From Candidatus Magasanikbacteria bacterium CG1_02_41_34 (GTDB lineage Bacteria; Patescibacteriota; Patescibacteriia; Magasanikbacterales; UBA922), in NCBI GenBank assembly GCA_001871445.1, contig MNVD01000011.1, forward strand, positions 29,382-93,381: a stretch of 64,000 nt of DNA, read 5' to 3'. This document shows, in pieces, positions 26,825 to 49,103 of the stretch. A program made the translations under genes and the position numbers. Under the pieces are notes generated by a model. That model saw nothing but the letters and a program-made list of their open reading frames with translations. It did not search any database and was not told the origin of the DNA. How positions within the stretch are numbered: the first letter of the stretch is position 1; each line of letters starts with the position of its first letter.

Positions 26825-26834
26825 CTGACACCCT

Positions 26835-27227: not shown

Positions 27228-28790
27228 ATGACCGTTTCCTATGTCAGAAAAATTCAAAACGGATCAATTGCACTTTTTACGTCTCAAACAGTGACAGCAT
27301 TTATTGCAATTGTAACAACTCCATTACTCATACGTACACTTGGCCTCGAAATGTACGGATTGTATATGGCTTTTCTTTCTTTTGCGAGCGTGACTGGAGG
27401 AGTAAATTTAGGGATGAATAGCGCACTAGTTAATAAAATTAGTTTTCTTTTTGCTGAAAAAAAATATTCTGACATAACAAAATTAATAAGCGGTTTTTTG
27501 TTGTTATATACCATAGTTTTAGTACTGGTGTTGTCTCTTGTTGTTTTTTTGTCTAAATTTGGATTTATAAATATACGAGCGTTGTTGAATGCTGCTTCGT
27601 TTTCAAGTCTACCAGTACTAGAAATCATAACTATAGTTCTTTTTACAGTTTTGTTTAATAGTTTTTTTGGTGCAGTTTTCCCGGCCTTTTTAACGGGTAT
27701 TAATCAAATATCACAATTACAAAAAATTGTCATAGGATATAGTATTTTTTATAATCTTTTCTATATCCCATTCTTACTTTTTTTGAAGCCTTCAATTTAT
27801 GAGTTAGTTCTTTTTCAGCTGTGTAGTGATTTGTTTAAATTTGTGGTTATATTTTGGTTTGTTCATAGATCTTATTCTTGGCTGAGGGTTGTTTTAAAAT
27901 TTTCTTACTTGAAAAATGCATTGAAAATGGTTAGATCCGGTATTGAGTATTTTTTGTCTTTTTTGGCTCAATCGTATTGGTCAAAAATAGATATATTAAT
28001 CATTTCTCATTTTTTAGGGAATGCACTTGTGTCGGTATATGTAATTACCGAGAAGGTGTTTAGATTCCCCTCTAATTTATTTAGTATAGCTTCTGCAGCA
28101 CAACCAAGTTTTGCTCAATTGTATGCTGCACAAAAGAAGTCAGAACTTAGCATATTATTTATACGTGTTTTGAGATTGCACTTTATTAGTAAATTTGTTT
28201 TTATTTCAATTTTTGCTGTTTTTTTTAAGGAGTTTGTTGAGATTTGGATTCCTTATGAAAAAGTATTTTTTAGCTATGGGTTGGTTGCATTATTTTCTAT
28301 AATTTTTTTGTCATATGCATGGGGTGGGCCTTTCGTTATATGCCTAAATGCAATGTTTAAACAAAGATATTTAATACTATCTAGTGTTGTAGGCCTTATC
28401 ATCAATGTCGTGCTTTCACTAGTACTTGTCAACAGGATGGGATTGATAGGTGTTGTGGTTGCTACCGTAGTTGTGCATCCTTTTTTCTTTGGTATAGTTA
28501 GTCCATATATTTTAAGAAGGTTTATAGATATAAATCCTACTTTTGAGTATTTTAGAATAGTAATTCGTCTAATTGGACCTTTTCTATTATTCTTGGTAGG
28601 GTACAGGCTCTTAGTTTTGTTTATTGCACAGACTATACTATCAATATTTTTTTTCTTTTTGTTGACGAGTATGTATGTATATTTAGTATATAGGTATAGT
28701 TTGATTGATGAAGAACAACTTTTTTTTCAACATAAAATTAATAATATAATGCATAGATTTAAACGAATATTTATAAATAATACAAATTAA
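27228..28790 (+). CDS. wzx: Polysaccharide/oligosaccharide-unit flippase (Wzx-like, MOP superfamily)
   Basis: 520 aa and about 12-14 TM helices, very hydrophobic. The N-terminus 'SIALFTSQTVTAFIAIVTTPLLIRTLGLEMYGLYMAFLSFASV' is typical of the PST/Wzx family. Confidence 0.6.
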   Translation: MTVSYVRKIQNGSIALFTSQTVTAFIAIVTTPLLIRTLGLEMYGLYMAFLSFASVTGGVNLGMNSALVNKISFLFAEKKYSDITKLISGFLLLYTIVLVLVLSLVVFLSKFGFINIRALLNAASFSSLPVLEIITIVLFTVLFNSFFGAVFPAFLTGINQISQLQKIVIGYSIFYNLFYIPFLLFLKPSIYELVLFQLCSDLFKFVVIFWFVHRSYSWLRVVLKFSYLKNALKMVRSGIEYFLSFLAQSYWSKIDILIISHFLGNALVSVYVITEKVFRFPSNLFSIASAAQPSFAQLYAAQKKSELSILFIRVLRLHFISKFVFISIFAVFFKEFVEIWIPYEKVFFSYGLVALFSIIFLSYAWGGPFVICLNAMFKQRYLILSSVVGLIINVVLSLVLVNRMGLIGVVVATVVVHPFFFGIVSPYILRRFIDINPTFEYFRIVIRLIGPFLLFLVGYRLLVLFIAQTILSIFFFFLLTSMYVYLVYRYSLIDEEQLFFQHKINNIMHRFKRIFINNTN

Positions 28791-28793
28791 TAT

Positions 28794-30206
28794 ATGAACA
28801 GATATTTTGTAGAGTTTGAAAACAATATTACTTCACAGTGGGGTGAAGATGGTATTCTTGAAGAAATTTTTAGGCGGATTGGTGATGGAACAAAAATGGC
28901 CATTGAATTTGGTGCGTGGGATGGGAAGCATTGTAGTAATGTTTGGAACCTGTGGAACAACAAAGGGTGGTCAGCAATATTGATAGAATCTGAGGAAAAA
29001 AGAGTTGAAGAATTAAAGCAGAATATTGAAGGATTTGATAACGTAATACCTGTACACGCTTTTGTAGAAACTGAGGGTGATAATACGTTGGATAAAATTC
29101 TTGGCAAGTATCTGCCCGGGAAAAAGGTTGATTTACTTTGTATAGATGTAGATGGAGATGATTATCATATTTTGGAATCAATTGAAACAATAAAACCGCG
29201 TGTAATTGTTATTGAATATAACCCCACTGTTCCTCCACACATAGATATTGTACAAGCAGAAGGTGAATATTTTGGGGCATCTGCAAAAGCTTTGAATAGA
29301 CTTGCGACAGACAAGGGATATGTATTGGTAGATATCACTTCTACTAACATGATTTTTGTAATTGATGATGAATTTCAAAAGATTGACATATCTAGACAAA
29401 CGGTGGATGAACTCTTTGACAAAAGTTTGCTGACTTATGTTATTAGTGGATATGGAGGCTATTCTTTCTTAACTCGTTTACCAAGATTTTCCAATTTTTT
29501 CCAGTTTCGTCGTAAGAAAAAGGTTGGTTTGTCTATACGTGATAAAGACACTTCATGTATTCCCGTTATTATTCGTAGGAATGAATCAATGCTTGCTTTT
29601 GTGAGTAAACGGTTCCATGTCCCCGGTACAAAAGTCACATGGCATCGTGTGTTGGTCCGGTTGATTAATAAAAAAAGAGAATTAAAATTCAGATGGACTC
29701 ATTACAAGAAGCAGAAGACTATACGAGCATATCAAAAAAAATATGATATAAGTACGATGCTTGAAACGGGTACCTATAAAGGGGACATGGTATTTAAGAT
29801 GCGTAATGTATTTAAGAAAATTTATACAATAGAATTAGGGAAGAAGTTGTACGAAGATGCTTGTGTTCGTTTGAAAGATTTTTCTCACATAACATTACTT
29901 CATGGAGATAGTGGAGAAAAAATTACTGAAATACTAACTTCTATAAAAGAACCGACATTGTTTTGGCTTGATGGACATTATTCCGGTGGTGAGACAGCTT
30001 TAGGAAATTTGGAAACGCCTGTGATTGCGGAGTTAAAAAGTATACTAAAACATCCTGTCAAAAATCATGTGATTTTAATTGATGATGCTCGTTGTTTTAA
30101 TGGGGAAAAGGATTATCCCACAATGAAAGAGCTTACTGCTTTAGTTACCCAATTTTCAAATTACACATTGGAGGTTAAGAATGACATAATTAGAGTAGTT
30201 AATTAA
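28794..30206 (+). CDS. Two-domain methyltransferase: an FkbM-family N-domain plus a class I (TylF/macrocin-OMT-like) C-domain
   Basis: The N-domain reads 'MAIEFGAWDGKHCSNVWNL...LLCIDVDGDDYHILESI'. The C-domain reads 'LETGTYKGDMVFKM...LHGDSGEKITEIL...LFWLDGHYSGGET...HVILIDD'. Confidence 0.5.
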   Translation: MNRYFVEFENNITSQWGEDGILEEIFRRIGDGTKMAIEFGAWDGKHCSNVWNLWNNKGWSAILIESEEKRVEELKQNIEGFDNVIPVHAFVETEGDNTLDKILGKYLPGKKVDLLCIDVDGDDYHILESIETIKPRVIVIEYNPTVPPHIDIVQAEGEYFGASAKALNRLATDKGYVLVDITSTNMIFVIDDEFQKIDISRQTVDELFDKSLLTYVISGYGGYSFLTRLPRFSNFFQFRRKKKVGLSIRDKDTSCIPVIIRRNESMLAFVSKRFHVPGTKVTWHRVLVRLINKKRELKFRWTHYKKQKTIRAYQKKYDISTMLETGTYKGDMVFKMRNVFKKIYTIELGKKLYEDACVRLKDFSHITLLHGDSGEKITEILTSIKEPTLFWLDGHYSGGETALGNLETPVIAELKSILKHPVKNHVILIDDARCFNGEKDYPTMKELTALVTQFSNYTLEVKNDIIRVVN

Positions 30207-30227
30207 AACACAATAGATATTAAAAAC

Positions 30228-31298: not shown

Positions 31299-31336
31299 AT
31301 AAAAATTTCAGTAGGTATGTCTGCTTGTAAAAAAAT

Positions 31337-32059: not shown

Positions 32060-32140
32060 TGTTTGCAAAAGATAGATCGTTAGATGTATGTCTCCTCAAG
32101 ACATGTTGCAGAGAAGGTTTTTAAAGTATATTTTTGATGT

Positions 32141-33226
32141 ATGAAAGAGAAAATAGATTTATCAAAGAAAGCAATAGAGATGTGGAATACATTTGATACA
32201 GATCAAAAAAGTTTTTGGTCTGATTATTTTGAATTGCAAACTGTCTCAATAGAAGATATAAATAAATTTTCTTCATACAGTCATGAATATTTATATTCTC
32301 TAAATAATGAAGAAATCACCAAAGTAGTTTTTTGTATTGTCGTTGAGATTTTGAGATACAATGATATGCATAAAATGAATAGAGCGTTTTTTGGTAATTC
32401 TGGAGGATTGGATAGTGCTACAGTCTGTGCCTTATTGTCAAAAGCCAAAAAAATGGCTAAAGATTTGGGCAATGATTTTGATATTATTTCTTTGGGGTTA
32501 CCAATATATAGTAATCCAGAGCATGATATGCGTGCAAAACAAACTGCACAGAAATTCGAAATAAGTCATGTATTAATAGAAAATCTTGACAATGTTTTGA
32601 AAGAGTGTAAAAAATCTTTAAGTCCGTTGGTTGAAGATTTTAATTTTAATGAAGAAGAAGTGCGTCGTGGTTTTGGTAATGTGAAGGCACGAATGAGGAT
32701 GATTGTAAATTTTTTTGGAACAACGCAACCAGGAAGCTATGTTGTTTCAACTGACAACTTGTCAGAGCTCTACATGGCCTTTTGGACACTCATGGGAGAT
32801 GTGGGGGCATTTGGGCCAATTCAAAATATTTTCAAAGGTTTGGAATTGCCCTCTATTGCGTTTGCACTCGGTGTACCCGAAGAGACGTTGGGTGCAAAAC
32901 CAACAGATGGATTGGAAATACATGCATCATTGGATGAAAGAGAGGGTGGGGATGTCGATGCCTTCAAAGGTGTTCAGTATCCGCATCTTGATGCTATTAT
33001 TTGTTATGCTGTAAAAAATGGTTTAATGTTGGACAAAGACACATTTGTTACGGTTCCAGCCGGAAATATTGATTCGGATTTTGCAACCCAAGAAGTTGTG
33101 GATGGCTTGGTAAGACAGATGTCTAGTCCTGGCTCTGTGTGGAAGAGAAAGAGTGGATCTATTGGTACTGCCATTTGCAGAGAAGATCTCGGTTTATCTC
33201 CTCTAGAGAATATTACGTTAGTTTGA
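32141..33226 (+). CDS. NadE-family PP-loop ATP pyrophosphatase (NAD+ synthetase-like amidating enzyme)
   Basis: PP-loop 'FGNSGGLDSATVCALLSKA'. The NadE-type segment is 'VSTDNLSELYMAFWTLMGDVGAFGPI...LGVPEETLGAKPTDGLE'. Confidence 0.55.
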   Translation: MKEKIDLSKKAIEMWNTFDTDQKSFWSDYFELQTVSIEDINKFSSYSHEYLYSLNNEEITKVVFCIVVEILRYNDMHKMNRAFFGNSGGLDSATVCALLSKAKKMAKDLGNDFDIISLGLPIYSNPEHDMRAKQTAQKFEISHVLIENLDNVLKECKKSLSPLVEDFNFNEEEVRRGFGNVKARMRMIVNFFGTTQPGSYVVSTDNLSELYMAFWTLMGDVGAFGPIQNIFKGLELPSIAFALGVPEETLGAKPTDGLEIHASLDEREGGDVDAFKGVQYPHLDAIICYAVKNGLMLDKDTFVTVPAGNIDSDFATQEVVDGLVRQMSSPGSVWKRKSGSIGTAICREDLGLSPLENITLV

Positions 33227-33235
33227 AGATATACT

Positions 33236-34285
33236 ATGAAACCAACAGTATATATAACCGGTGGATCAAAAAATCCAAGCGGCGGAACAAAAGTCATGAA
33301 TGAATTGACTAATCTTTTTATTGAAAAAGGTTTTGAAAGTTATGCTGTAACTTCAGACGATAGTGGTCCAGCAAGTTTTTTGGAAAATCCCGCCCCTACG
33401 TTGAGTATAAATGAATATGAAAATGGGCTAAAAGAGGATGACATCACGATTGATTTTTGGCCTACCAAGAGATTTTTTAATATATCAAGTAGAAAAAAAA
33501 ATAAGAGAAGAGTTTTTTGGCAGCATGGGGCATCCATACCCATAGGAAATGAATTCGCGGGAGAAGATGTTTTTAAAAAGGGGAACCCCTATACACACCA
33601 TTGGAATGTGAGTAGTGCGTGCGCTGATTATATTGAGTATGCGTATGATTTAAAAAATATTGATATTGTTCATCCATTTTTTGATACAGACATAATGAAA
33701 AAATTTGTTGCAGAAAAAGATAAGCATTCACGAGAAGGGTTCTTAATTTTAGCTAGACGAGGACAAAAGTATATACCAAAAATCATTAAAAAATTTGGGA
33801 CAACGCAAAAAATTACAGTGATGAAACCTCCGTTTCATGAAAAAGATTTCTTTGCACAATTGTTAACGCACGAATTTTATATTTCCGTGGATGATGGCAT
33901 ACACAATGTTATATTAAAAAATAAAATAAAAACAGAAATAAAAAAAATAGTTAATAAAGATTTTAGGATTAAAGAGAATTCAAGAAACAACTGGATAATC
34001 CCAAAAGGTAATTTATTGGGTTTTCCGATGCCACCTGTCGAAGCTGCCTTGTTGGGAACGGTTGTCATTGGTTTTGCTATGGGTGGTGGATTGGAATGGA
34101 TGAATGATAAAAATTGTTTTTTAGCAAAAGATAAAAATGAAAAATCGTTATTTGAAAATATTGAAAAAGCAATTCAAACTCCTTTGCCTGATTTACATAT
34201 AACCAAAGAACAATCTTTTAAAGATATACAAAAGTTTACTAAGACACATACATGGGATCAGATTACTAATTCATTATCTTTATGA
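33236..34285 (+). CDS. Hypothetical, possibly a divergent GT-B glycosyltransferase
   Basis: N-terminus 'VYITGGSKNPSGGTKVMNELTNLF'. The C-terminal segment 'PVEAALLGTVVIGFAMGGGLEWMNDKNCFL' is weakly GT-B-like. Confidence 0.3.
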   Translation: MKPTVYITGGSKNPSGGTKVMNELTNLFIEKGFESYAVTSDDSGPASFLENPAPTLSINEYENGLKEDDITIDFWPTKRFFNISSRKKNKRRVFWQHGASIPIGNEFAGEDVFKKGNPYTHHWNVSSACADYIEYAYDLKNIDIVHPFFDTDIMKKFVAEKDKHSREGFLILARRGQKYIPKIIKKFGTTQKITVMKPPFHEKDFFAQLLTHEFYISVDDGIHNVILKNKIKTEIKKIVNKDFRIKENSRNNWIIPKGNLLGFPMPPVEAALLGTVVIGFAMGGGLEWMNDKNCFLAKDKNEKSLFENIEKAIQTPLPDLHITKEQSFKDIQKFTKTHTWDQITNSLSL

Positions 34286-35082
34286 TTAAAAAAATTATTA
34301 AACAATTTTTTGGATATTTTGGCTTTGATTTGATAAAAAGAAAGAATGTCGAGAGGAAAACTATGTCGGGTATATTGAAGCAGATTTCCAAACAGTGGCA
34401 GCCAGATGTGGTTGTGGACGTTGGGGCAGCTTTTGGTGAATGGTCAAAAGAATGTTATAGTGTATTCCCCAAAGCAAAATATGTATTATTGGAGCCTTTG
34501 GAAGAATACAATAAACCCCTGACAAAAGTTAAAAATAAAATTACAGATTCTATATTTTTGCCAGTAGCCGCTTGCCCTCAAAATGGTAAAATCAATTTTC
34601 ACGTACACGAAGACTTGGTTGGATCTTCGTTAAAAAATGAAACAGAAGGACCGGAAGTTGATGGTAAGGTCAGGATTGTAGAAGGTAAGACTTTGGACAA
34701 TGTCTGTAGTGAAAATGAATTGCAAGGAAATTTTTTAATAAAGATTGATGTTCAAGGAGCGGAATTGGATGTTCTTCGGGGTGCACAGCATATGTTAGCT
34801 AATACACAGTGTGTTATTTTAGAGGTCTCATTTTTCAAATCTTTTGTTAATGCTCCAGACGTATATGAAGTCATTATATTTATGAAAGAAAAAGGTTTTG
34901 TTATTTACGACATAGGTTCTTTTTTATATAGACCTTATGACGGAGCATTGTCTCAGACTGATATGGTTTTTGTAAGAGAAACAAGTATACTCAGAAAATT
35001 TCATGGGTATGCAACTCCAGAACAACGAAACATTCAGAACGATAAATTTAAGAAGCAACGCAATTCGTTTTATGGTATATAA
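34282..35082 (+). CDS. FkbM-family methyltransferase
   Basis: 'VVVDVGAAFGEWSKE', '...LIKIDVQGAELDVLRGAQHML'. It overlaps the upstream gene by 4 nt. Confidence 0.6.
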   Translation: MIKKIIKQFFGYFGFDLIKRKNVERKTMSGILKQISKQWQPDVVVDVGAAFGEWSKECYSVFPKAKYVLLEPLEEYNKPLTKVKNKITDSIFLPVAACPQNGKINFHVHEDLVGSSLKNETEGPEVDGKVRIVEGKTLDNVCSENELQGNFLIKIDVQGAELDVLRGAQHMLANTQCVILEVSFFKSFVNAPDVYEVIIFMKEKGFVIYDIGSFLYRPYDGALSQTDMVFVRETSILRKFHGYATPEQRNIQNDKFKKQRNSFYGI

Positions 35083-35226
35083 TATGTTCAATAACAAAAT
35101 ATATTTGTTGACAACATATCCCTTTTTTCTATTCCAGAATACAAAAAATAAGCCATATGAATCAATAAAATTTTTTACAAAAGAACATACGTGGAATAAA
35201 CAATCAGAGTTGTAAATCTATAATAT

Positions 35227-36051
35227 ATGACAAATAATCAAACAATTGAGGATGTAAAAAACTATTGGAACAAGAGGCCGTGTAATATTCGACATTCAAA
35301 TAAGGAGGTGGGTACAAGGGAATATTTTGATGAAGTAGAAAAAAGGAAATACTTCGTAGAGCCTCATATTCCTGGTTTTGCAGAGTTTGAAAAATGGAAA
35401 GGTAAAAATGTTATGGAGATAGGGTGTGGTCTAGGTACAGATACCATGAGTTTTTTGCGTTCAGGAGCACGAGTTACCGCGATTGATCTCTCTAAAGAGT
35501 CTGTAATGATGGCAGAAAAACGCGCGGAGGTATTTGGTCTGCAAGATCGGGTAGATTTTTATGTTGCAAATGCTGAAAAACTTGATGACGTTGTTCCTAT
35601 CAAACAGTATGATTTGATATATTCATTTGGGGTTATACATCATACACCCCATCCCGAAGTAGTAGTTGAGAAAATAAAAAAATATCTTCCAAAAGGTGGT
35701 GTATTTAAAATGATGGTATATTATAAATTTTCTTGGAAAGTTTTGTGGATCATTATGAGATATGGAAAATTTCAATTTTGGAAGATAAAAGAGTTGGTAC
35801 CAAAATATTCAGAGGCACAAGTAGGGTCTCCTGTCACTTTTTATTATAGTAGAAGGGAAGTGAAGAAGTTATTGGAAGGTTTTGAAATAAAAAATATATT
35901 TGTTGATCACATATTTCCTTTTTCTATTCCTGAATACAAAAAATATGAATATAAAAAAGTTTGGTATTTCCGTTTTATGCCAAAATCGTTGTTCCTTCTC
36001 TTAGAGAAAATGTTTGGATGGCATTTATGTATAACCGCTGTAAAAAAGTAA
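35227..36051 (+). CDS. Class I SAM-dependent methyltransferase
   Basis: 'VMEIGCGLGTDTMSFLRSGARVTAIDLS', '...YDLIYSFGVIHH'. Confidence 0.65.
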   Translation: MTNNQTIEDVKNYWNKRPCNIRHSNKEVGTREYFDEVEKRKYFVEPHIPGFAEFEKWKGKNVMEIGCGLGTDTMSFLRSGARVTAIDLSKESVMMAEKRAEVFGLQDRVDFYVANAEKLDDVVPIKQYDLIYSFGVIHHTPHPEVVVEKIKKYLPKGGVFKMMVYYKFSWKVLWIIMRYGKFQFWKIKELVPKYSEAQVGSPVTFYYSRREVKKLLEGFEIKNIFVDHIFPFSIPEYKKYEYKKVWYFRFMPKSLFLLLEKMFGWHLCITAVKK

Positions 36052-36060
36052 TTTATATAT

Positions 36061-37368: not shown

Positions 37369-37371
37369 ATT

Positions 37372-37995: not shown

Positions 37996-38099
37996 GAAAT
38001 GTGTTTTATTGTAGAAAAGAGTATAGTGGTAGATTCTTTTTTAATTGGAAATTGAAATTGGAAAATGAATTTGGTTTTTTTAAGCAGTAGCAATTTAGT

Positions 38100-38999: not shown

Positions 39000-39337
39000 A
39001 GATCGCAAAAAGTTTTCTGTAGAGGAATATGATCAATCATTTGACGAAAGTTATGCAGATGCTTTTATAGAGAGTTTTTCTTTGAACACCTCGAAAGTAC
39101 TGAATTGTAAACTATCAAAATCATGAGAAGGCCAGACTATTGCTATGGCACAACTCAGTACATTTCTCGGCCGTGTATAGCGCAAAACAAATATAACCTG
39201 ATACCAATTTGATTTAAGAGAGTTAAATCGAGTGCATCTGGGGGGTGGGTAGCTTGATTTATTGCCTCTGTCCGAGTAGACTGTGTATATAACAAGTTGG
39301 GTAATCTACAGAGATAGTCCAAGTAATATACCTACAT

Positions 39338-39763
39338 GTGGACAGTATAACAGTCAATAATTCAGGAATAATTAGTCTCCAAACGTTCAAAGATGGTTTT
39401 GATGGTATTTTGTCTATTGCTGAGTCTGGGAAACAAATTCCTTTTGATGTAAAGTGCACATATTATATTTATAACTTAGTAAACCACGAATCTGTCGTGC
39501 GTGGTAAACATGCTCATAAGTCTCTCAAACAGGCAATCTTTTGTATCAACGGTTCATTTACGTTGTCCCTTGATGATGGTGAGAGTAAACAGGAGATCAT
39601 AATGGATAACCATGGTGTAGGTGTGTATCTTGGACCGGAGTTGTGGCACACAATGACAAATTTCAAGAATAATTGTATTTTGCTTGTGTTGGCATCAGAT
39701 TGGTATGATGAGTCTGACTACATACGAGAGTATGGTGAATTTCTTGCATATATAAAAAAGTAA
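39338..39763 (+). CDS. FdtA/WxcM-like cupin. The family is that of NDP-4-keto-6-deoxyhexose 3,4-ketoisomerases.
   Basis: '[43 protein letters not shown]...[10 protein letters not shown]'. The start is a GTG at 39338 and is uncertain. Confidence 0.55.
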
Positions 39764-39764
39764 T

Positions 39765-40850
39765 ATGATTCCATTTGTCGATTTTAAAACTCAATATAAT
39801 AATTTGAAAACTGAGATAGATAAGGCCGTTCATCGAGTGCTTGACAGTGGGTGGTATATCTTGGGAAATGAGGGAATAGCTTTTGAACAGGAATTTGCTT
39901 CGTATGTAGGTACAACATATTGTGTGGGTGTCGCTTCTGGTACAGAAGCGATTGCTCTTGGTCTTATGGCGCTTGGAATAGTTCACGGTGATGAGGTTAT
40001 TACCACAAGTCTCACCGCATATCCAACAATCACGGCAATTGTTCAGTCCGGAGCAACCCCAGTACTTGTTGATATACATACTGAAGATGGTCTGATAGAT
40101 GTTTCAAAAATTGAACAACACATTACATCCAAAACAAAAGCAATAGTCCCGGTTCATCTTTATGGGCAGAGTTGCGACATGGATGCCATCAAGATTGTTG
40201 CAGACAAGCATGATCTTATGATAGTAGAAGATTGTGCTCAAGCCGTAGGTGCCTTATACGAGGGGAAAAAAGTTGGATCGATAGGAGAATGTGGTGCATT
40301 TTCTTTTTATCCTACGAAAAATCTTGGTGCGTATGGTGATGGTGGAGCTATTACTACAAATAACGAGGAATTATATAATCGATTGCTCGCAATGAGAAAT
40401 TATGGACAAACCTCTCGTTACTCACATGATAGTGCGGGGATTAACAGTAGACTTGACGAAATGCAAGCAGCAATATTGCGTGTCAAACTCCTTCATTTGG
40501 ATAAGGATAATAATAGACGGAAAAGTATTGCTCAAAGATATAAAAATGAACTTGTTGGAGTTGAGACACTTTTAGAGCGGACGTATGGTGAAGGTGTGTA
40601 TCATTTATTTGTAGTAAAGACAGACAAAAGAGAGGAATTCATGAAATATATGGAGGAGAATGAAATTAAGACGTTAATTCATTTTCCAATGCCAATTCAT
40701 GCACAAAAAGCATTTGTATGGGAAAGGGATGACGAATATACAAATGCGACTCAGTTTGCAAGCATGATAGTAAGCATTCCTATATATCCAGAATTGGAAG
40801 ATGACCAAATCGATACAATAATTTCAACTATTAATGCCTTTGATAATTAA
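39765..40850 (+). CDS. DegT/DnrJ/EryC1/StrS-family PLP-dependent sugar aminotransferase
   Basis: '[10 protein letters not shown]', '...[44 protein letters not shown]', where the Lys falls in the 'YPTKNLG' motif. Confidence 0.85.
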
Positions 40851-40853
40851 CAT

Positions 40854-41774
40854 ATGCGTGTCTCCATTGTTATCCCTGTCTATAATGGTTCTGAAAGTAT
40901 AGAGAGACTAGTAAGTGGGCTGGTAGAAAAAGTTGGTTCTTTGTATGATTTAGAAATTGTACTAGTAAATGATTTTTCGCCAGATAACTCAAGAGATGTT
41001 TGTGTGGACGTACAAAAACGGTTTTGTAAAAATGTTAAATTTTATAGTTTGGCCAAAAATGCAGGAGAACACAACGCAGTCATGGCAGGTCTCAATAAAT
41101 GTACAGGTGACTATGCTATCATCATGGATGATGATTTTCAAAATCCAATTAGTGAAGTAATAAAACTTATTACATACATCAGTGAACATGATTACGATGT
41201 CGTATATACATATTATGAAGAGAAAAAGCATTCACGTTTTCGTAATTTAGGAAGTTCTTTTAATGACAAGGTCGCAAATATAATGCTTCAAAAGCCAAAA
41301 GATTTGTACCTCTCCAGCTTCAAGGTGATAAACCGGTTTACGATAAATAATATAATTTCATACAAGCTACCTTTTCCATATATTGATGGACTTATCTTAC
41401 GTACGACACGTCATATTGGAAAGCTCAAAGTGGAGCACGCAGCTCGCGAGGTAGGGAAATCGAATTATACACTCAAAAAATTGGTATCATTGTGGTCCAA
41501 CATGTTTATCAATTTTTCTATATTACCACTTCGCATCATGGTCGCTGTTGGATTTCTTTTTGCAGCATGTTCTTTTATTTTTGGAGTATTTGTCGTGTAT
41601 GAAAAATTTACAGACCCGTCACTTCCTCTTGGTTATCCATCACTCCTTATTGCGATTTTGATGTTGTCAGGTATTCAATTAATTTCTATTGGGGTCATGG
41701 GTGAATATATCGGACGTATGTTTTTATCACAAAATAAAACTCCTCAATATACTATAAGAGAGTCATTTGAATAA
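40854..41774 (+). CDS. GtrB/ArnC/CsbB-like polyprenyl-phosphate sugar transferase. It is a GT2 enzyme with a C-terminal TM anchor.
   Basis: The GT2 N-terminus is 'VSIVIPVYNGSESIERLV...IVLVNDFSPDNS'. The DxD-type motif is 'IIMDDDFQNP'. The C-terminal part has two TM helices, 'FSILPLRIMVAVGFLFAACSFIFGVFVV...LLIAILMLSGIQLISIGVMGEYI'. Confidence 0.7.
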   Translation: MRVSIVIPVYNGSESIERLVSGLVEKVGSLYDLEIVLVNDFSPDNSRDVCVDVQKRFCKNVKFYSLAKNAGEHNAVMAGLNKCTGDYAIIMDDDFQNPISEVIKLITYISEHDYDVVYTYYEEKKHSRFRNLGSSFNDKVANIMLQKPKDLYLSSFKVINRFTINNIISYKLPFPYIDGLILRTTRHIGKLKVEHAAREVGKSNYTLKKLVSLWSNMFINFSILPLRIMVAVGFLFAACSFIFGVFVVYEKFTDPSLPLGYPSLLIAILMLSGIQLISIGVMGEYIGRMFLSQNKTPQYTIRESFE

Positions 41775-41785
41775 TAGTACTGTTT

Positions 41786-42529
41786 ATGGAAAAGTATGAA
41801 TATGATGCAATGTATAAATATGAGAATAATCATTGGTGGTATTTGGTATTGGATGATTTGATAAAGAAATATTTAGATAATAAAATCAATGATGACAAAA
41901 TTAATACCCTTCATATTTTTGATGCAGGATGTGGAACAGGGAGGATGATAAAATTGTTGAGTTCCTATGGTGAAGTTCATGGGATCGATTTTTCTGAAGA
42001 GGCAGTTAATTTTTCAAGGAAAAGAGGGTGTAAAAATGTAAAAAAGGAAGATTTAAATAAGTGGAATCCAAAAAATGAAAAGTACGATGTCATTACCTGT
42101 CTAGATGTACTTTACCATTCAAATATAAAAGATGATCTAGATGTGATGAAAGTTTTTTATAGAGCTCTAAAATCAGATGGAATTTTGATAATGAATGTAC
42201 CTGCGTTTGATTTTTTAAAAAGGAACCATGATTTAAAGGTTTCTACAAAAAAGAGGTATATAAAAAAAATACTTAAAAATAATTTAAAAAAAATAGGTTT
42301 TAAGATAGAAATACAGACATATAGATTACCTCTTCTTTTCTTTGTTATTTCGTTTAAAAAAATAATCGAATTTTTTCTAAAATCAACGGATGAAACATCG
42401 GAGTTAAAAGAGTTGCCAACTTTTTTCAATCGATTATTATTTTTTGTACATAGATTAGAAAATAGAATTATATTAAGTAGAGTATCAATTCCCTTTGGAA
42501 GCTCTGTGTTTGTTGTCTGTCGAAAATAA
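41786..42529 (+). CDS. Class I SAM-dependent methyltransferase
   Basis: 'IFDAGCGTGRMIKLL', 'YDVITCLDVLYH'. Confidence 0.6.
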   Translation: MEKYEYDAMYKYENNHWWYLVLDDLIKKYLDNKINDDKINTLHIFDAGCGTGRMIKLLSSYGEVHGIDFSEEAVNFSRKRGCKNVKKEDLNKWNPKNEKYDVITCLDVLYHSNIKDDLDVMKVFYRALKSDGILIMNVPAFDFLKRNHDLKVSTKKRYIKKILKNNLKKIGFKIEIQTYRLPLLFFVISFKKIIEFFLKSTDETSELKELPTFFNRLLFFVHRLENRIILSRVSIPFGSSVFVVCRK

Positions 42530-42552
42530 ATATTAGAGATAAATATAACATT

Positions 42553-43179
42553 ATGAAACATAATATATTAGAAATAATAAAGAAAATAATACATGAATTA
42601 GCTGAAAGACCTGTTATTTTTAATTTACTTCGTCGTATATTGGAATTTAACTATAGAGGAGAAAAAAGAGTCATCCGAGATGAAATTACTGTGTATGATC
42701 GAGTACTTGATTTGGGTTGCGGAACTGGAGAACTTTGTAAAGAATTTATCTCAAAAAAATATGTAGGAATTGATTTAAATGATTTATATATACGATATGC
42801 TAAAGAGAAATATCCTGATTATATATTTGAAACAATGGATGCGACTCAATTGCAGTTTTCTGATAATAGCTTCGATACCATATTAATTTCAGGGGTTTTA
42901 CATCATTGTAATAACGAAGTTGCGATGTCCATTTTGAAAGAAGTACATAGGGTCTTAACACCAAATGGTAAAGTAATTATATGGGAAGATGCGTTGACAT
43001 GTAGTAAGATGAATATAGTAGGTCGGGTAATTCAAAAATTAGATGAAGGTGAACATATTTTAGATAAGGACGGTTATCTCAATCTTTTTCATTTATATTT
43101 TAAAATCACTAAATCATACAACATGGTCAGTGGTTTTTGTGATTACCATGTATTTATTTTGGAAAGTAAATCTAATTAA
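42553..43179 (+). CDS. Class I SAM-dependent methyltransferase
   Basis: 'VLDLGCGTGELCKEF', 'FDTILISGVLHH'. Confidence 0.65.
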   Translation: MKHNILEIIKKIIHELAERPVIFNLLRRILEFNYRGEKRVIRDEITVYDRVLDLGCGTGELCKEFISKKYVGIDLNDLYIRYAKEKYPDYIFETMDATQLQFSDNSFDTILISGVLHHCNNEVAMSILKEVHRVLTPNGKVIIWEDALTCSKMNIVGRVIQKLDEGEHILDKDGYLNLFHLYFKITKSYNMVSGFCDYHVFILESKSN

Positions 43180-43196
43180 AATCTATCAATTCATTT

Positions 43197-45320
43197 ATGA
43201 TAAAATTTCAAAATATAATGAAAAAAATTAGACATATACGGGATCCCAGAATCATTTTTTTGATAGTAACTGTCTTTTTTTGTTTTGAATATTTTATTTT
43301 GGGTCCTTTTTCTTATGCACGCATTGGAGACAATCTAGATAGTTTTGTAATAAGAGCTGTAGTATATTGGCAGAGTATGTTTCGCGATGGAATGATGAGT
43401 TATTGGCTTCCTTATTTTACTGGTGGCATGGACAGACTATCAAATATGTCTTCGTTTGGTGAAATAGGTAATTTATTATATATTTTTCCTGCATGGTTTG
43501 CCTCGGCAATTGTTATTTTATCTTCAGTTTTTTTTGGAGGGTATTATACTTTTAAGATTGGTCATGAAATTTTGGATTTGGATAAAAAAGCTAGTCTTAT
43601 CGCTGGTATTTTATTTTCATCGTTTTTTGTCATTCAGGATCTCAAACCGTTTATGTTAGGGATCGTGGTGTTGCCATTTACTTTATTTTTTTTAGAAAAG
43701 ATATTTTTTAACAAAACTTTTTCTTTATTTAAGAAAAGTATACTTTTCCTCATATTAGGAATCGTGTTTTCGTCTTTTTCGTCTATTACATTAACCATGC
43801 CTTTTGTGGCAATTGCAATAGTAGTTTGGTTTACTCTAGTTAGAAAACAAAAAAATTTAATTTTTTATTTATTACTTTCCATTTTTTTTCTTTTGTCTTT
43901 TCTATTGAAATCTCAAGAGATTTGGAGTTTATTTATTAACACACCATTATCTCGCCGTAGTGCTGAATCATTGTATTATAAAGCAGACCTAAGTCAATTA
44001 TTATCTGAGCTTAGAAATACTTTTAAGACTAACAGCATCGCTCTTCTCATAGTTTTTTTTGGATTTTTTCTTTCGAAAAAAGATAAATTATTTATTATAT
44101 TAATGACTATCTCTCTAGTGTTTATGTTATTACCTACATTTTTTCCAATATTATCAGGTAGTAATTTTGGAAGAGTGTTAGGTCCTTTTCGTAATTTTGG
44201 TTTTAAGTGTTTATATCTTGTTTCTCCTTTATTTTTTTCTTTGGCGGCTGGATACGTATTTAATTATTTTAAAGATACAAGAGCTAGTGTGTTTCTACAA
44301 AAGACCAATAAAGATTACTTATTTTACATACAGAATATCCTAATTTCGATTACTTTGGTTCTGGTTGTTTTTGTAAATTTTTCTATAAAAACGAATCATT
44401 TTTATGTCTGGTTGAAAACTGGTGGATATTATGCAAATACTCACAGTCCTGATGTGTCAGCGTTGGTTGATAGAGAAAAAAATTCTTTACCTTATCGCGT
44501 TGCAATCATAAGTCCTAAATCTTATAAAAGTCTTTATCCCTTTTTATCAAATTTTTATGGATTGGAAACTTCTGATGCTTCCACCGACGTGATGCCACAA
44601 AGAATTGATGAATTTTTTAGGATTATGTCAAATGCAGACACTCGGACATCCCAGTATTTTTTACCAGATGTTGATAGCCAAACAGCAAAGAAAATGATGA
44701 CAAATTTTGATTTGAATAATTTGGTCAATACATCACTTATGTCGTTATTCAATGTGAAATTTGTCTTGACTGACCATATCATCAATTCTGACGGTTTTGA
44801 ATTAATTCAGACTCCTAGCGTGAGTGAATGGAAATCATGGACAGACATGAAAGAATCGGAGAAAATTAAACTTAAATTGGAAGAAAATTTTTTTGGCAAA
44901 AAATTATTAGTGTATGAAAACAAAAATTCTTTTCCAAGATTTTTTTTGGCAAAAAAAGTGGAATTTTTTGATACAGATAATGATCTCTTGAATGCCTTAT
45001 CAGATGCTGATATAAAAAGATTGAGAGAAACTGTTTTTTTGTTAAAACAATACACTGACAAAATTCCTGAAATGAATGGTGTCGATACAGATGTTGATGT
45101 CATAGAATATTCAAATGATAAAATAAAATTGAAAGTTGAAACTGATGGACCATCTGTGTTAGTCATTAGTAATAATTTTACTCCTTTTTGGGAAGTCTAT
45201 GTGGATGGGGTAAAGAAAGAGATAATCCCAGCCTACCATGCTTTAATGGCTGTATCGCTTGAGAGAAATAATAATGAAGTAGAATTAATCTATAAACCTC
45301 CATATGTAGTAAAATTATAG
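43197..45320 (+). CDS. Large polytopic membrane protein, likely a GT-C-fold glycosyltransferase (YfhO- or GtrC-like), with a C-terminal soluble domain
   Basis: 707 aa. There are about 12 TM helices in the first 400 aa or so, followed by a roughly 300-aa hydrophilic C-domain. It sits between a GtrB-like gene and a GtrA-like gene. No family-specific motif was confirmed. Confidence 0.45.
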   Translation: MIKFQNIMKKIRHIRDPRIIFLIVTVFFCFEYFILGPFSYARIGDNLDSFVIRAVVYWQSMFRDGMMSYWLPYFTGGMDRLSNMSSFGEIGNLLYIFPAWFASAIVILSSVFFGGYYTFKIGHEILDLDKKASLIAGILFSSFFVIQDLKPFMLGIVVLPFTLFFLEKIFFNKTFSLFKKSILFLILGIVFSSFSSITLTMPFVAIAIVVWFTLVRKQKNLIFYLLLSIFFLLSFLLKSQEIWSLFINTPLSRRSAESLYYKADLSQLLSELRNTFKTNSIALLIVFFGFFLSKKDKLFIILMTISLVFMLLPTFFPILSGSNFGRVLGPFRNFGFKCLYLVSPLFFSLAAGYVFNYFKDTRASVFLQKTNKDYLFYIQNILISITLVLVVFVNFSIKTNHFYVWLKTGGYYANTHSPDVSALVDREKNSLPYRVAIISPKSYKSLYPFLSNFYGLETSDASTDVMPQRIDEFFRIMSNADTRTSQYFLPDVDSQTAKKMMTNFDLNNLVNTSLMSLFNVKFVLTDHIINSDGFELIQTPSVSEWKSWTDMKESEKIKLKLEENFFGKKLLVYENKNSFPRFFLAKKVEFFDTDNDLLNALSDADIKRLRETVFLLKQYTDKIPEMNGVDTDVDVIEYSNDKIKLKVETDGPSVLVISNNFTPFWEVYVDGVKKEIIPAYHALMAVSLERNNNEVELIYKPPYVVKL

Positions 45321-45366
45321 TGTTCAATTTATTTATTCAAATAGGAGTTTTTAGTAATTATTACTA

Positions 45367-45777
45367 ATGATAAAACATATAATGAAAATTATCAGTCCTC
45401 AATTAATAAGATTTATATTCGTTGGAAGTGTAAATATGGTTTTGAGTTATAGTATTTTTTTGATATGTATTTATTTTTTTTATTTTCATTATACTTTAGC
45501 TCTTATCGTTGAATATTTTTTTGGTATTCTAAATAGTTATTTTTGGAATAGAAGATGGACTTTTAAGAGTGATGGTAATGTCAAGAAGGAAATTAGAAAA
45601 TTTATTTTTGTATATCTCGTGATGTTTGGTTTAAATTATGTATTACTTTCTATATTTATAGACTTGATTAATATGAGAGTTTTTTTTGCACAAATGGTAG
45701 CTATAATAATTATTACCCCCGTAACCTTTTTAGCTCATAAAATGTGGTCTTTTGTTAAGAAAGAAACACACAATTAA
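45367..45777 (+). CDS. GtrA-family small membrane protein (a polyprenyl-P-sugar flippase component)
   Basis: 136 aa with 4 TM helices. The N-terminus 'LIRFIFVGSVNMVLSYSIFLICIYFF' resembles the GtrA 'F..VG...t..d' start. Confidence 0.6.
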   Translation: MIKHIMKIISPQLIRFIFVGSVNMVLSYSIFLICIYFFYFHYTLALIVEYFFGILNSYFWNRRWTFKSDGNVKKEIRKFIFVYLVMFGLNYVLLSIFIDLINMRVFFAQMVAIIIITPVTFLAHKMWSFVKKETHN

Positions 45778-45781
45778 TTTT

Positions 45782-46612
45782 ATGAATCCTCTTATCTCAG
45801 TAATTATGCCATGTCACAGTGATGGGCTTTATATAGCACAAGCTATTAAGGCTGTACAAGCTCAGACGTACACCAATTGGGAGCTTATTATTGTTGATGA
45901 CCATAGTATTGATAATACAGCAAAAATTGTAGAATCATTTGTAAAAGATGATACGAGAATTCGTTATGTATTTTTGGAAGAAGAAGATACGGAGCGAATT
46001 AATAAAAAAGGAGACAATATAAATGCTGGATGGCTTGCGCGTAATTATGGCATGTCTTTGGCAAATGGTGAACTTATTACATTTCAAGACGCAGATGATG
46101 GATCACACACAAATCGTTTTGAAATTCAATTGTATGGGATGGAAAAATATAAAAGTGATCATGTCGTTGTGGATTGGCGTAAGTATAGTGACGATTTAAA
46201 TGAAACGGTATATGATGTGGATATAGATACTTTGCAAGTGATCGATACAGACACTATTTTGAAAACTGTACAAAAAAATAAAAAAGGATTTTTTAAGTAT
46301 CCATTTTCAAGAAATGAAGATAACAATTACTTATCATCAGTTGCTCATAGGTTTGATAGAAAATATTTGAGATCTTGGGACTCGTATCCTTTGGCAGCAA
46401 GTATGCCATTATTTAGACGCTCTGTGTTAGGCGAAGTCCGTTTTAGGCAGTTATATGAGCGTGTCTGGCCATCAGGAAGAGGACGAGGCGCTGATAGAGA
46501 TTTTAATTTTTGGCTTGCAGAGACTTGTAAAACAAGTATAGGACTTGAAGTTCCATTGGTGTTGTGGCGTCATAATGGTTTAGATAATAAAAAATATGTA
46601 GATAGAAATTAG
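45782..46612 (+). CDS. GT2-family glycosyltransferase
   Basis: 'ISVIMPCHSDGLYIAQAIKAVQAQTYTNWELIIVDDHSIDNT', '...FQDADDGS'. The ATG at 45782 lies just after the GtrA stop. Confidence 0.7.
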   Translation: MNPLISVIMPCHSDGLYIAQAIKAVQAQTYTNWELIIVDDHSIDNTAKIVESFVKDDTRIRYVFLEEEDTERINKKGDNINAGWLARNYGMSLANGELITFQDADDGSHTNRFEIQLYGMEKYKSDHVVVDWRKYSDDLNETVYDVDIDTLQVIDTDTILKTVQKNKKGFFKYPFSRNEDNNYLSSVAHRFDRKYLRSWDSYPLAASMPLFRRSVLGEVRFRQLYERVWPSGRGRGADRDFNFWLAETCKTSIGLEVPLVLWRHNGLDNKKYVDRN

Positions 46613-46613
46613 T

Positions 46614-47702
46614 ATGAAAAAAACAAAAATACTATTTATATTTCGTACACCAATGGAAAACATCGGGCAAATTAATGATGGAAAAGTCGATGAGCCTGCA
46701 GAATTTTTATGGGGTATGAAAGATTTGGATCGTTCAATATATGATGTACGTTTTATAAATGCCCCTCGTTTTGGTAAGCGAACAGGTATACGTAGATTCA
46801 CATGGATTTTTGAGGTGGTATTTGCGAAGTATGTCCGTATAGGATTGCCTATAGATATATATTTGAAATATAAAAAAGATATTGTTTGGGCAGATGAAAT
46901 AGTATGTACATATGATCAGGTGTCTATCGGTATATTATTTTGGCGTTTATTCGGCTTTCTTAGAAAGAAAAAAATTCACGCAATTGTAATGAGCTTATCT
47001 GAGCGTATCGTATATTTTAAAAACATTTATCCATTGAAATGGTTTGTTTCATTGCTGTTGCGTCAAGCTGATACTATATTAACTCTTTCAGATGTGGCCT
47101 CACAGGCGATTGAAAAAGAATACGGTGTAGAACGAACAAAAATATATACATGGTATTTTGGGATCGACATTGATTTTTGGAAATCAAAAAAAGAAAATAT
47201 GATATATGATATCATGTCTATTGGAAATGATATGAATCGTGATTTTGAGACACTTATCAGTGCTATTTCATCTGATGATAAGGTAGTTCTTGTGACTAAA
47301 AAAAATATTAGACAAGTGCATAATGATGCGGTTACCGTACTTTCTGGTATTGAGAATACAGAAGTAAGAGAATTATACAATAAGTCTCGTATTATTGTTA
47401 TACCAAGTATTGCCCTAAAAACAGAATCTGCTGGATTAAGCTGTTTTTTGCAAGCACTTTCTTGTGAGAGACCTGTTATTATATCGGATTCACCACCTTT
47501 TAGAGAAATATTTAAAGATGGTATGCATTGTCTTTTTTATATCCCTGGTTCGGTAGATGATTTACGTAAAAAAATTGAATTGTTGAAGAATGATGAAAAA
47601 TTAGCCAAAAAAATAGCAACACAGGGTTATGAATTAGTACGTAATAGGTATACTTGCAAAGACATGTCTAATCAGTTAGACTATCTATTCAAACATAGGT
47701 AA
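46614..47702 (+). CDS. GT4/GT-B glycosyltransferase
   Basis: The C-terminal region 'KTESAGLSCFLQALSCERPVIISDSPPFREIFKDGMHCLFY' is GT4-like (E-x7-E). Confidence 0.65.
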   Translation: MKKTKILFIFRTPMENIGQINDGKVDEPAEFLWGMKDLDRSIYDVRFINAPRFGKRTGIRRFTWIFEVVFAKYVRIGLPIDIYLKYKKDIVWADEIVCTYDQVSIGILFWRLFGFLRKKKIHAIVMSLSERIVYFKNIYPLKWFVSLLLRQADTILTLSDVASQAIEKEYGVERTKIYTWYFGIDIDFWKSKKENMIYDIMSIGNDMNRDFETLISAISSDDKVVLVTKKNIRQVHNDAVTVLSGIENTEVRELYNKSRIIVIPSIALKTESAGLSCFLQALSCERPVIISDSPPFREIFKDGMHCLFYIPGSVDDLRKKIELLKNDEKLAKKIATQGYELVRNRYTCKDMSNQLDYLFKHR

Positions 47703-49091: not shown

Positions 49092-49103
49092 ATAGGAACA
49101 TAT

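Follow-up and report, generated by a model that had tools for sequence, protein, structure and literature searches.

An AT-rich, probably exchangeable core in a surface-glycan locus of Candidatus Magasanikbacteria bacterium CG1_02_41_34

Gene content and base composition of the locus

We analyzed a 64,000-nt stretch (the window) of contig MNVD01000011.1 (assembly GCA_001871445.1) from Candidatus Magasanikbacteria bacterium CG1_02_41_34, which belongs to the candidate phyla radiation (CPR). Pfam and NCBIfam searches placed a co-directional glycan locus at ~8 kb to ~52 kb of the window. Within it, a first-pass annotation had noted the interval 27228-47702 as AT-rich and as a likely laterally acquired glycan module. 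We conclude that the AT-rich block is probably the variable, serotype-like core of a ~45-kb surface-glycan locus that is swapped by recombination, and not a discrete island. The block extends from 23.6 to 47.7 kb by composition and starts at 27135 by synteny, directly after the gene of a small helix-turn-helix (HTH) protein. The genes and features of the locus are listed here in map order (GT, glycosyltransferase, with its family number; TPR, tetratricopeptide repeat).

8053-11718: giant protein of 1221 aa without a Pfam match, with a signal-peptide-like N-terminus (…LSALAAPLAANA/ADCP)
11736..22640, +: conserved left module with two Wzy_C+TPR genes, a TPR gene, GT2, GT2, GT4, gmd, a 304-aa insert and fcl (Pfam, NCBIfam)
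11736-14099 and 14759-16846: the two Wzy_C+TPR genes (PF04932, 71.7 and 71.4 bits)
20784-21698: 304-aa gene between gmd and fcl, without a Pfam match
22594-23613: second gmd-like 4,6-dehydratase (341 bits, under the equivalog cutoff of 415), common only to the related loci L045 and L046
23616..26824, +: low-GC block left of the HTH gene, with two GT1 genes and a 355-aa protein
23616-24677 and 24674-25747, +: GT1-family glycosyltransferases (Pfam; GC 0.317 and 0.331)
25757-26824, +: 355-aa protein without a Pfam match (GC 0.362)
26826..26851, +: three direct repeats with a 10-bp period (TGACACC, TGACACT and a degenerate TGGCCC), a putative operator overlapping the -35 box
26835..26864, +: predicted TG-extended promoter of the sigma-70 type in front of the HTH gene (TTGACA-N18-TAATAT)
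26889..27134, +: HTH_17 protein of 81 aa (PF12728, 48.6 bits; TIGR01764, 34.3 bits, cutoff 28.8)
27228-28790, +: Wzx flippase (PF01943, 34.8 bits, cutoff 28.2; without an NCBIfam match)
28794-30206, +: 470-aa FkbM-like methyltransferase (Pfam)
30228-31298, +: GT1-like transferase
31337-32059, +: class-I methyltransferase
32141, +: PP-loop/NAD-synthase-like amidotransferase (Pfam, NCBIfam), first gene of the sub-module 32141..37995
33236, +: GT1-like transferase
34282, +: FkbM methyltransferase
35227, +: class-I methyltransferase
36061, +: nucleoside-diphosphate (NDP)-sugar dehydrogenase of 435 aa
37372, +: FkbM methyltransferase, last gene of the sub-module
38100, +: GT2 (Pfam), first gene of the block 38100..41774
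39338, +: FdtA 3,4-ketoisomerase (Pfam)
39765, +: DegT-family aminotransferase (Pfam)
40854, +: ArnC/PgfS-like GT2 with full-length NCBIfam matches (ArnC 1.9e-45, PgfS 1.5e-44), both far under the equivalog cutoffs
41786 and 42553, +: two methyltransferases, opening the block 41786..47702 (GC minimum, 0.296)
43197, +: 707-aa DUF6044/YfhO-like GT-C membrane protein (DUF6044, 38.3 bits, cutoff 27)
45367, +: GtrA (PF04138, 87.7 bits)
45752, +: GT2 (Pfam)
46614, +: GT4-type transferase (Pfam)
47712..50021, +: UDP-glucose/NDP-sugar dehydrogenase and NAD-dependent epimerase, the right anchor (GC ~0.40; Pfam, NCBIfam)
50340-51890, -: WbaP-type phosphoglycosyl transferase (PF02397 Bac_transf, 212.9 bits, plus CoA_binding_3), just outside the block

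Judged by their domain families, these genes could form a pathway. The phosphoglycosyl transferase would prime undecaprenyl phosphate, and GDP-fucose, (amidated) uronic acids and a 3-amino-3,6-dideoxyhexose would be assembled into a repeat unit by cytoplasmic glycosyltransferases. The interval 27228-47702 contains seven methyltransferases, three of them FkbM-type, which would decorate the repeat unit, and Wzx would flip it. The Wzy_C/TPR proteins would then polymerise or ligate the glycan; polymerase, ligase and O-oligosaccharyltransferase roles cannot be told apart for them. The block 38100..41774 would make the 3-amino-3,6-dideoxyhexose and load a sugar on polyprenyl phosphate. The block 41786..47702 would act as an extracytoplasmic glycan-decoration module. 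The ArnC/PgfS-like GT2, GtrA and the GT-C protein would add a side sugar outside the membrane. The YfhO match of the GT-C protein covered only its C-terminal 75 residues, with 27.6 bits against a cutoff of 28.5. The 'protein-glycosylation locus' of the first-pass annotation is a putative one, deduced from the Wzy_C/TPR proteins and the neighbouring secreted giant protein. The 1221-aa protein may be the surface or S-layer-type glycan acceptor. Orthologues of this protein (58-66% identical) were present in the related loci L025 and L026, always just upstream of the Wzy_C/TPR genes. The open reading frame (ORF) 22594-23613 has a TTG start and shares 47 nt with fcl. On identical contigs, gene callers gave it a length of 335 or 322 aa, and its true start probably lies further downstream.

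The G+C content of the interval 27228-47702 was 0.325, compared with 0.385 for positions 1-27227 and 0.407 for 47703-64000. In 1-kb windows it was 0.325 in the segment (standard deviation 0.029, n = 20) vs 0.409 in the outer flanks (standard deviation 0.025, n = 29; Mann-Whitney p = 1e-8). Likelihood change points were placed at 13393, 23610, 41716, 47720 and 50488, with 23610 by far the strongest (log-likelihood ratio 102). The G+C content decreased stepwise from 0.411 (1-13.4 kb) to 0.370 (13.4-23.6 kb), 0.336 (23.6-41.7 kb) and 0.296 (41.7-47.7 kb). The AT-richness and the right edge (47720) of the interval first noted therefore stand, and its left edge has to be moved to 23610: the low-GC block begins at gene 23616, 3.6 kb left of 27228. 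For single genes, the hand-counted value of about 30% for wzx was accurate (0.299), that of about 20% for the GT-C gene was too low (0.297), and those of 47% for the giant gene and 40% for gmd were too high (0.433 and 0.379); GtrA had 0.236.

The composition of the proteins changed along with that of the DNA. FYMINK residues (F, Y, M, I, N and K) rose from 0.259 in the outer flanks to 0.312 in the left module and 0.361 in the low-GC block, in line with the K/N/I/F-rich proteins first noticed in the segment, and GARP residues (G, A, R and P) fell from 0.233 in the outer flanks to 0.171 in the block. Most of the GC deficit was in codon positions 1 and 2, with a first-position GC of 0.411 in the segment vs 0.52-0.55 in the outer flanks; at third positions the values were 0.256 and 0.31. 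Four-fold-site GC was 0.252 in the segment, 0.241 at 8-23.6 kb and 0.285/0.326 in the two outer flanks. GC skew was positive throughout the window and unchanged across the block.

The metagenomic source of the sequence and the abrupt GC shift at 47.7 kb could point to an assembly or binning chimera that joins the DNA of two organisms with different GC. Exact-protein look-up of two flank genes retrieved 20 same-species contigs, all 99.8-100% identical to the window, which had been assembled independently from several samples (JGI, ENA, Logan, NCBI). Each of the junctions at 23.6, 27.2 and 47.7 kb was crossed by ~10 independent contigs at this identity, and synteny with relatives persisted on both sides of the block. 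As independent contigs run across all junctions, a chimera is excluded for every practical purpose. Some contigs of this population share an end: the independent assemblies L014, L016 and L019 all end at 33702-33780, L004-L008 start at 44346-44431, and L003, L008 and L010 end at 50436. Microdiversity of the population, or a loss of coverage within the cassette, may account for the shared ends (~33.70-33.78, 44.35-44.43 and 50.44 kb).

Conserved flanks and a replaced centre

The flanks of the block were investigated in related loci. The UDP-glucose dehydrogenase anchor had hundreds of homologues at 69-92% identity, and the right anchor as a whole (47712..50021) was 65-92% identical and syntenic in Magasanikbacteria relatives. 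Genes 47712-60367 were syntenic at 46-89% identity in L021 and 40-76% in L024, and L021/L027 (anchor identity 83%), L024 (73%), L029, L039 and L042 were syntenic from 47712 to ~60 kb. In the 10 kb upstream of the anchor, none of these loci had an orthologue of a segment gene. At this position L021 carries an ABC transporter, six methyltransferases and a DUF2334 deacetylase-like protein, and L024 an APS kinase, a PAPS-reductase-like protein, a sulfotransferase, a reverse-strand Wzx and a kinase. Yet other genes precede the anchor in L023 (anchor identity 92%), and L029, L033, L036-L039 and L042 likewise have different genes there.

The left flank was retained in L025 and L026 (giant protein, Wzy_C, TPR, Wzy_C, GT2, GT2, GT4, gmd and fcl), and in L026 the HTH orthologue directly follows fcl. 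The order Wzy_C (38-45%), gmd (72-79%), fcl (50-64%) and HTH recurred in ~20 of 41 long metagenomic loci. Across L025, L026 and these ~20 loci, the left module was 38-53% (Wzy_C), 72-94% (gmd) and 50-91% (fcl) identical. The genes after the HTH gene in the ~20 loci were not orthologues of those in the window. Unrelated genes follow the HTH gene in ~25 relatives that keep gmd-fcl-HTH on the left. The first of them encoded Wzx in seven sampled loci and Wzm/Wzt in two, and the genes downstream of the HTH gene in relatives were all co-directional and tightly packed. Replacement by non-homologous cassettes, the comparison proposed with the first-pass annotation, is thus seen between relatives at both flanks, with right-flank genes 46-92% identical. 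We conclude from gene order that the conserved left part closes with the HTH gene, just before a hypervariable glycan operon, and that the dehydrogenase is the conserved right border of this operon.

Two ideas were rejected. The Wzy_C/TPR gene evolves too fast for a left anchor, its homologues falling to 53% and then to <=41%; it still yielded the syntenic loci L025 and L026. The 435-aa segment dehydrogenase was considered as a relocated orthologue of the second anchor-side dehydrogenase of L021/L023, to which it was only 21-27% identical.

The conserved left module has a small variable spot of its own, the second one of the locus, where gmd meets fcl; the two genes are adjacent in most relatives. 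In L025 (12322-14689) it holds an MBOAT gene and a 286-aa gene (GC 0.28 vs 0.42), in L026 (19527-20537) an insertion sequence with an rve transposase, the only rve found and located in a relative, not in the window, and in L045 (576-4775) a trio of CotH/beta-helix, VTC and DUF4956 genes. A different left context of L045 was considered and rejected, as this locus opens with an ORF that is 3'-terminal gmd sequence, and the CotH/VTC/DUF4956 genes are inserted between it and fcl. Gene order also varied elsewhere: in L040 (CAYNEQ010000003.1) the dehydrogenase-epimerase anchor lies ~6.6 kb upstream of left-module DUF11 and HTH (-) genes, and in L052 and L117 gmd and fcl are downstream of the HTH gene instead of upstream. 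The loci L029, L031, L033, L037, L039 and L042 have Magasanikbacteria-type synteny and 56-69% identical anchors in records of metagenome-assembled genomes titled 'uncultured Gammaproteobacteria bacterium'; these labels look unreliable. The record of L035 bears the title Acidobacteriota; its dehydrogenase is 67% identical and lies in DNA of 63% GC.

The relatives closest by HTH, L045 (95%) and L046 (80%), showed that the centre itself is a mosaic. Genes 23616-26824 were found only in these two loci (82-86% in L045) and were missing between fcl and the HTH gene in ~20 relatives. Both loci share 21.7-27.1 kb and genes 32141, 33236, 35227, 36061 and 37372 with the window (51-88%); their Wzx is just 29% identical, and window genes 28794-32059 and 34282 are missing. 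At the DNA level, homology with L045 covers 21692-27134 at 82.5% and stops at the HTH stop codon, where homology with L046 also stops. It restarts at 32150 at 71.7%, skips 34165-35153 and continues over 35154-38084 at 81%. Between 27134 and 32150, L045 carries a different 5-kb block (the 29%-identical wzx, a CotH-like 873-aa protein and a methyltransferase). The HTH gene, proposed as the boundary of the segment, is therefore a true junction of homology; as a compositional edge it has to yield to 23.6 kb. With this outer edge, and with sub-blocks that have different histories relative to L045, a single bounded acquisition is not upheld.

Orthologues of the sub-module 32141..37995 were 61-88% identical in L045, 51-77% in L046 and 47-59% in L125. 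The Wzx of the window had its best non-self relative at ~30% among 1.84 billion representative proteins, and the GT-C protein had six relatives only, at 32-49% identity, among 5.8 billion proteins. L125, one of these six and with a 65% identical anchor, contains 12 colinear cassette genes at 36-63% that end at the same anchor, with 60-63% for the block 38100..41774 and 36-47% for 41786..47702. L124 carries an FdtA-DegT-GT2-methyltransferase-GT-C sub-module beside an HTH_17 gene, and its orthologues of 38100..41774 are 54-62% identical. As the cassette of L125 is colinear, the cassette type must be old in the lineage and is not a recent import from a distant low-GC source. The cassette is missing at 83-92% anchor identity and present at 65% (L125), which is incongruent with flank similarity. 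This distribution fits exchange or long-maintained polymorphism within related CPR lineages. A 64-nt direct repeat (84% identity) was observed at 35087-35150 and 35882-35945; one copy belongs to the 3' end of gene 35227, and the other, its duplicate, is intergenic and adjoins gene 34282, the one missing from L045. It looks like a recombination scar.

We also considered a single recent import, in which a distant donor of low GC supplied an island of ~20 kb that came to lie between the HTH gene and the dehydrogenase. Such an island would agree with the large GC deficit (0.325 vs ~0.41), the sharp right edge at 47720, an excisionase-family HTH at the left edge and the absence of the cassette from the nearest relatives by anchor identity. 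However, no ORF of at least 90 aa at 22.6-50 kb had an integrase, recombinase or transposase domain in Pfam, no att-like flanking repeats were found at the block boundaries, and the HTH gene has no partner integrase. The only tRNAs of the window, tRNA-Met(CAT) and tRNA-Glu(CTC) at 62259-62484 (-), have no relation to the AT-rich block, from which they are 14.5 kb away. A mobile island, as the first-pass reading implied, is not borne out by these features. The compositional edge also lies outside the proposed boundary, the block has internal GC steps and sub-blocks of different history, its synonymous-site GC and dinucleotide signature resemble the neighbouring DNA, and the HTH gene is in place in dozens of relatives whatever the cassette. 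The cassette of L125 has diverged about as much as the anchors (36-63% vs 65-66%), which indicates long residence in the lineage. We therefore regard a recent island as very improbable. The earlier idea of a laterally exchanged glycan module was right in kind, and its recent low-GC import as a discrete island was not.

A different explanation would be vertical inheritance only, with an ancestral cassette that relatives lost or diverged, and with a mutational bias towards AT in membrane-rich genes under weak constraint and with weak expression. It is consistent with the deficit at codon positions 1 and 2, the FYMINK enrichment and synonymous sites like those of the rest of the locus, and also with the unchanged GC skew. 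The lowest-GC genes encode integral membrane proteins (wzx, GT-C and GtrA), and homologous cassette genes track the GC of their host, slightly below it (~0.33 in the window, 0.32-0.40 in L125 and 0.42-0.46 in L124); the window orthologues have the same GC as those in the generally AT-rich L045 locus. Comparisons within the window speak against it. Glycosyltransferases had a GC of 0.39-0.45 in the conserved flanks vs 0.30-0.34 in the cassette, paralogous dehydrogenases 0.407 in the flank vs 0.354 in the cassette, and the Wzy_C proteins with 12 transmembrane segments 0.37-0.40 vs 0.30 for Wzx, so that protein class does not explain the deficit. Fast-evolving flank genes (51800 at 46% and 53319 at 57% to L021) keep a GC of 0.40-0.42, and thus rapid evolution alone is no explanation either. 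Moreover, the cassettes of relatives are non-homologous and not degraded, with other exporters (Wzx or Wzm/Wzt) and other chemistries (sulfation, many methyltransferases), the homology breakpoints fall exactly at gene boundaries, and the distribution of the cassette conflicts with anchor similarity. Vertical inheritance on its own is therefore unlikely.

The GC drop was not confined to the window. The GC of the 8 kb after the HTH gene minus that of the 8 kb before it averaged -0.030 and was negative in 19 of 23 relatives (Wilcoxon p = 2.5e-4, for 23 loci that are not phylogenetically independent). Upstream of the dehydrogenase, the cassettes of several relatives had a GC 0.02-0.05 under that of the conserved flank. 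AT-richness is usual in variable regions of this kind. It could stem from exchange in a gene pool of lower GC, from AT drift in genes that evolve fast and are weakly constrained and weakly expressed, or from both.

The reading that we favour, a variable core probably swapped by recombination, has several observations against it. The incongruence rests on presence or absence of the cassette and on the identity of one anchor gene, and no donor was identified; if relatives had lost the cassette to different degrees, or if polymorphism had been maintained for long without lateral transfer, the distribution would be similar. The 20 same-species contigs showed no cassette variants within the population. 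Synonymous-site GC of the segment was not different from that of the rest of the locus (p = 0.62), Karlin dinucleotide distances were 80-82 for the segment and right flank vs 84 between the outer flanks, and relative synonymous codon usage (RSCU) correlated at r = 0.80-0.91 between regions, so that none of these measures singled out the block or marked it as foreign. Of the GC and codon check proposed for the interval, non-uniform GC was confirmed, and distinct four-fold-site GC and RSCU were not found. The genome-wide GC of ~41% is derived from the outer flanks and the bin name only. The pathway steps, the transcription unit and the binding of the HTH protein to the repeats are all deduced from sequence. 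With these points weighed, recombination remains the probable course: related CPR bacteria would swap cassettes, whole or in part, by homologous recombination within the conserved flanks and within internal genes that they share, and cassettes could turn over without dedicated mobility machinery.

The HTH gene and its repeat-bearing promoter

The HTH gene had been given the coordinates 26835-27134; its actual ORF is 26889-27134 (81 aa). The promoter TTGACA-N18-TAATAT is real in that it is conserved in relatives, and it is located upstream of the HTH gene, not between HTH and wzx. The repeat units start at 26826, 26836 and 26846 (degenerate), with TAATAT in the expected register, and the tandem TGAYACY-N3-TGAYAC has a single site in the 64 kb. 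The same architecture was found by aligning the upstream regions of the HTH relatives (loci L026, L045-L124 and the window). Tandem TGACACC repeats preceded the HTH orthologue in 37 of 38 loci, compared with 0.002 expected from shuffles. Their period was exactly 10 bp in 69/69 intervals, and the number of copies varied from 2 to 6; it was three in 24 loci, and L097 has a tandem array of six perfect TTGACACCTA units. The -10 box of the relatives starts 12-13 nt past the last repeat unit and reads TATAAT in 17 loci and TATACT in 8. Promoter-like sites were not enriched in the window as a whole (71 found vs 83.7 expected from shuffles); promoter scans alone are thus uninformative, and the HTH promoter is credited because of its conservation in relatives. 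Terminator-like sites did not exceed the shuffled expectation in this AT-rich DNA, and the terminator scan gave no such site in the HTH-wzx gap. The conserved promoter would drive the HTH gene together with the co-directional cassette.

The HTH gene was in place in all 80 loci of the metagenome scan, one of them identical to the window and the other 79 at 61-95%, and it is kept in place with many different cassettes downstream. An AlphaFold model of the protein (single sequence) had a pLDDT of 86.9. Its six best fold matches in the PDB were BldC-DNA chains, with a target-normalised TM-score of 0.65-0.81, a root-mean-square deviation of 1.4-2.8 Å and 31-32% identity over ~50 residues; Xis, TorI and RacA ranked below BldC. 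By sequence alone the match to BldC was weak and not significant (phmmer E = 0.24, 15 bits). The label "excisionase-family" was thus misleading for what is a conserved resident gene with a BldC-like predicted fold and without a partner integrase.

BldC of Streptomyces forms head-to-tail multimers on direct repeats, which vary in number (PMC5859096). On this ground, the HTH protein may autoregulate the variable operon by binding the TGACACC repeats, and perhaps control it; the BldC-like protein would bind the 10-bp-period repeats that overlap the -35 box. The conserved promoter with its 10-bp TGACACC repeats, together with the BldC-like HTH gene, is the only new element found. It is conceivable, but doubtful, that both form a lineage-wide control and exchange point for glycan diversity in Magasanikbacteria and related CPR. 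In that case, the HTH protein would multimerise on the repeats and switch the whole downstream variable operon, the repeat copy number (2-6) could tune or phase-vary its expression, and the conserved HTH-promoter DNA could serve as the left homology arm for swapping any cassette. Such a design of a regulator and a recombination anchor in one would be without description for other polysaccharide loci.

Outside these genes, the window contains the following features.

Left end of the locus: extracytoplasmic function (ECF) sigma factor and DUF5667 protein, a divergent pair
5025-5387, -: second HTH_17 gene, beside the ECF sigma/DUF5667 pair
Right of the phosphoglycosyl transferase: TSP3-repeat protein, S8 peptidase and further envelope genes

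The second HTH_17 gene was considered as a paralogue with the same operator and rejected, given an identity of 17% and an upstream region free of TGACACC repeats. It was 65-77% identical in L026, L040 and L058, vs 26-45% for its neighbours.

Comparison with known glycan systems

Low-GC, laterally exchanged glycan cassettes are textbook knowledge in enterobacteria, pneumococci and S-layer-bearing Firmicutes, and the architecture of a variable glycan core is itself already well known from O-antigen and S-layer glycan loci. Here, the same architecture is described for an uncultured groundwater CPR lineage, with mapped breakpoints. It suggests that the surface sugars of ultra-small, probably host-attached CPR bacteria diversify as well, presumably under pressure from phages or from host recognition. 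To catalogue CPR 'glycotypes' in metagenomes, the fcl-HTH pair can serve as a practical left anchor and the UDP-glucose dehydrogenase as the right one. The direct-repeat promoter and the BldC-like protein offer a regulation hypothesis that can be tested in vitro, in a group for which almost nothing is known of regulation.

The locus contains the features of a Wzx/Wzy cluster, namely a phosphoglycosyl transferase, Wzx, Wzy_C, a replaced centre and a low GC relative to a genome level taken from the flanks (0.41) and the bin name. Lipopolysaccharide or an outer membrane are, to our knowledge, not expected in Patescibacteria. With O-antigen (rfb) and pneumococcal cps loci it shares the cassette swap between conserved flanks, the mosaic of blocks with different histories and a graded GC, with intermediate pathway genes and lowest values for wzx and the glycosyltransferases (PMC3715488). 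In the Salmonella O-antigen, glycosyltransferase, wzx and wzy genes have 28-37% GC vs 51-52% for the genome, and pathway genes are intermediate (PMC3715488). Unlike in those loci, the deficit of the window is mainly in codon positions 1 and 2, and variation was observed only between species-level relatives and not as a within-species serotype series.

The S-layer glycan (slg) gene clusters of Firmicutes are similar in their packed, co-directional exporter, glycosyltransferase, methyl- and sugar-modifying and NDP-sugar genes, in a WbaP-type initiating transferase, a Wzy_C-type ligase or O-oligosaccharyltransferase and a large secreted protein encoded nearby, and in a side-branch sugar that would pass through a polyprenyl-phosphate intermediate here. 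Both have a sub-genomic G+C content that is lowest in the strain-specific central genes; in slg clusters it is 30-43% vs 45-53% (PMC2943079). The cause of the graded low GC is likewise open for the Salmonella O-antigen (PMC3715488) and the Firmicutes S-layer glycan clusters (PMC2943079). In contrast to slg clusters, the host of the window is a CPR bacterium and the locus is known from its genes alone; it is larger (~45 kb), with two Wzy_C+TPR proteins and seven methyltransferases, and its variable part is headed by a conserved HTH gene and a direct-repeat promoter. For slg clusters, a review reports no upstream JUMPstart sequence (PMC2943079).

The lowest-GC end of the block resembles the three-component decoration systems GtrA/GtrB/GtrC, CsbB/GtcA/YfhO and Pgf of Streptococcus mutans, with a GtrA, an ArnC/PgfS-like GT2 and a polytopic DUF6044/YfhO-like protein; GtrA, GT2 and the polytopic protein are placed together in the lowest-GC sub-block. 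It differs from them in a GT2 under the NCBIfam equivalog cutoffs, a partial YfhO match and a rare GT-C family.

BldC (PDB 6AMA, 6AMK) is, like the HTH protein of the window in its predicted fold, a small stand-alone MerR-like winged helix, and the HTH protein also lacks the effector or dimerisation domain of the classical MerR type. BldC operators and the putative operator here have a variable number of direct repeats (2-6 here) spaced at one helical turn. The HTH protein differs from BldC in an extra C-terminal helix in the model (residues 61-80), in a DNA binding that is predicted and in a repeat unit of TGACACC instead of AATT-N4-C, and its putative targets are glycan genes, not developmental genes.

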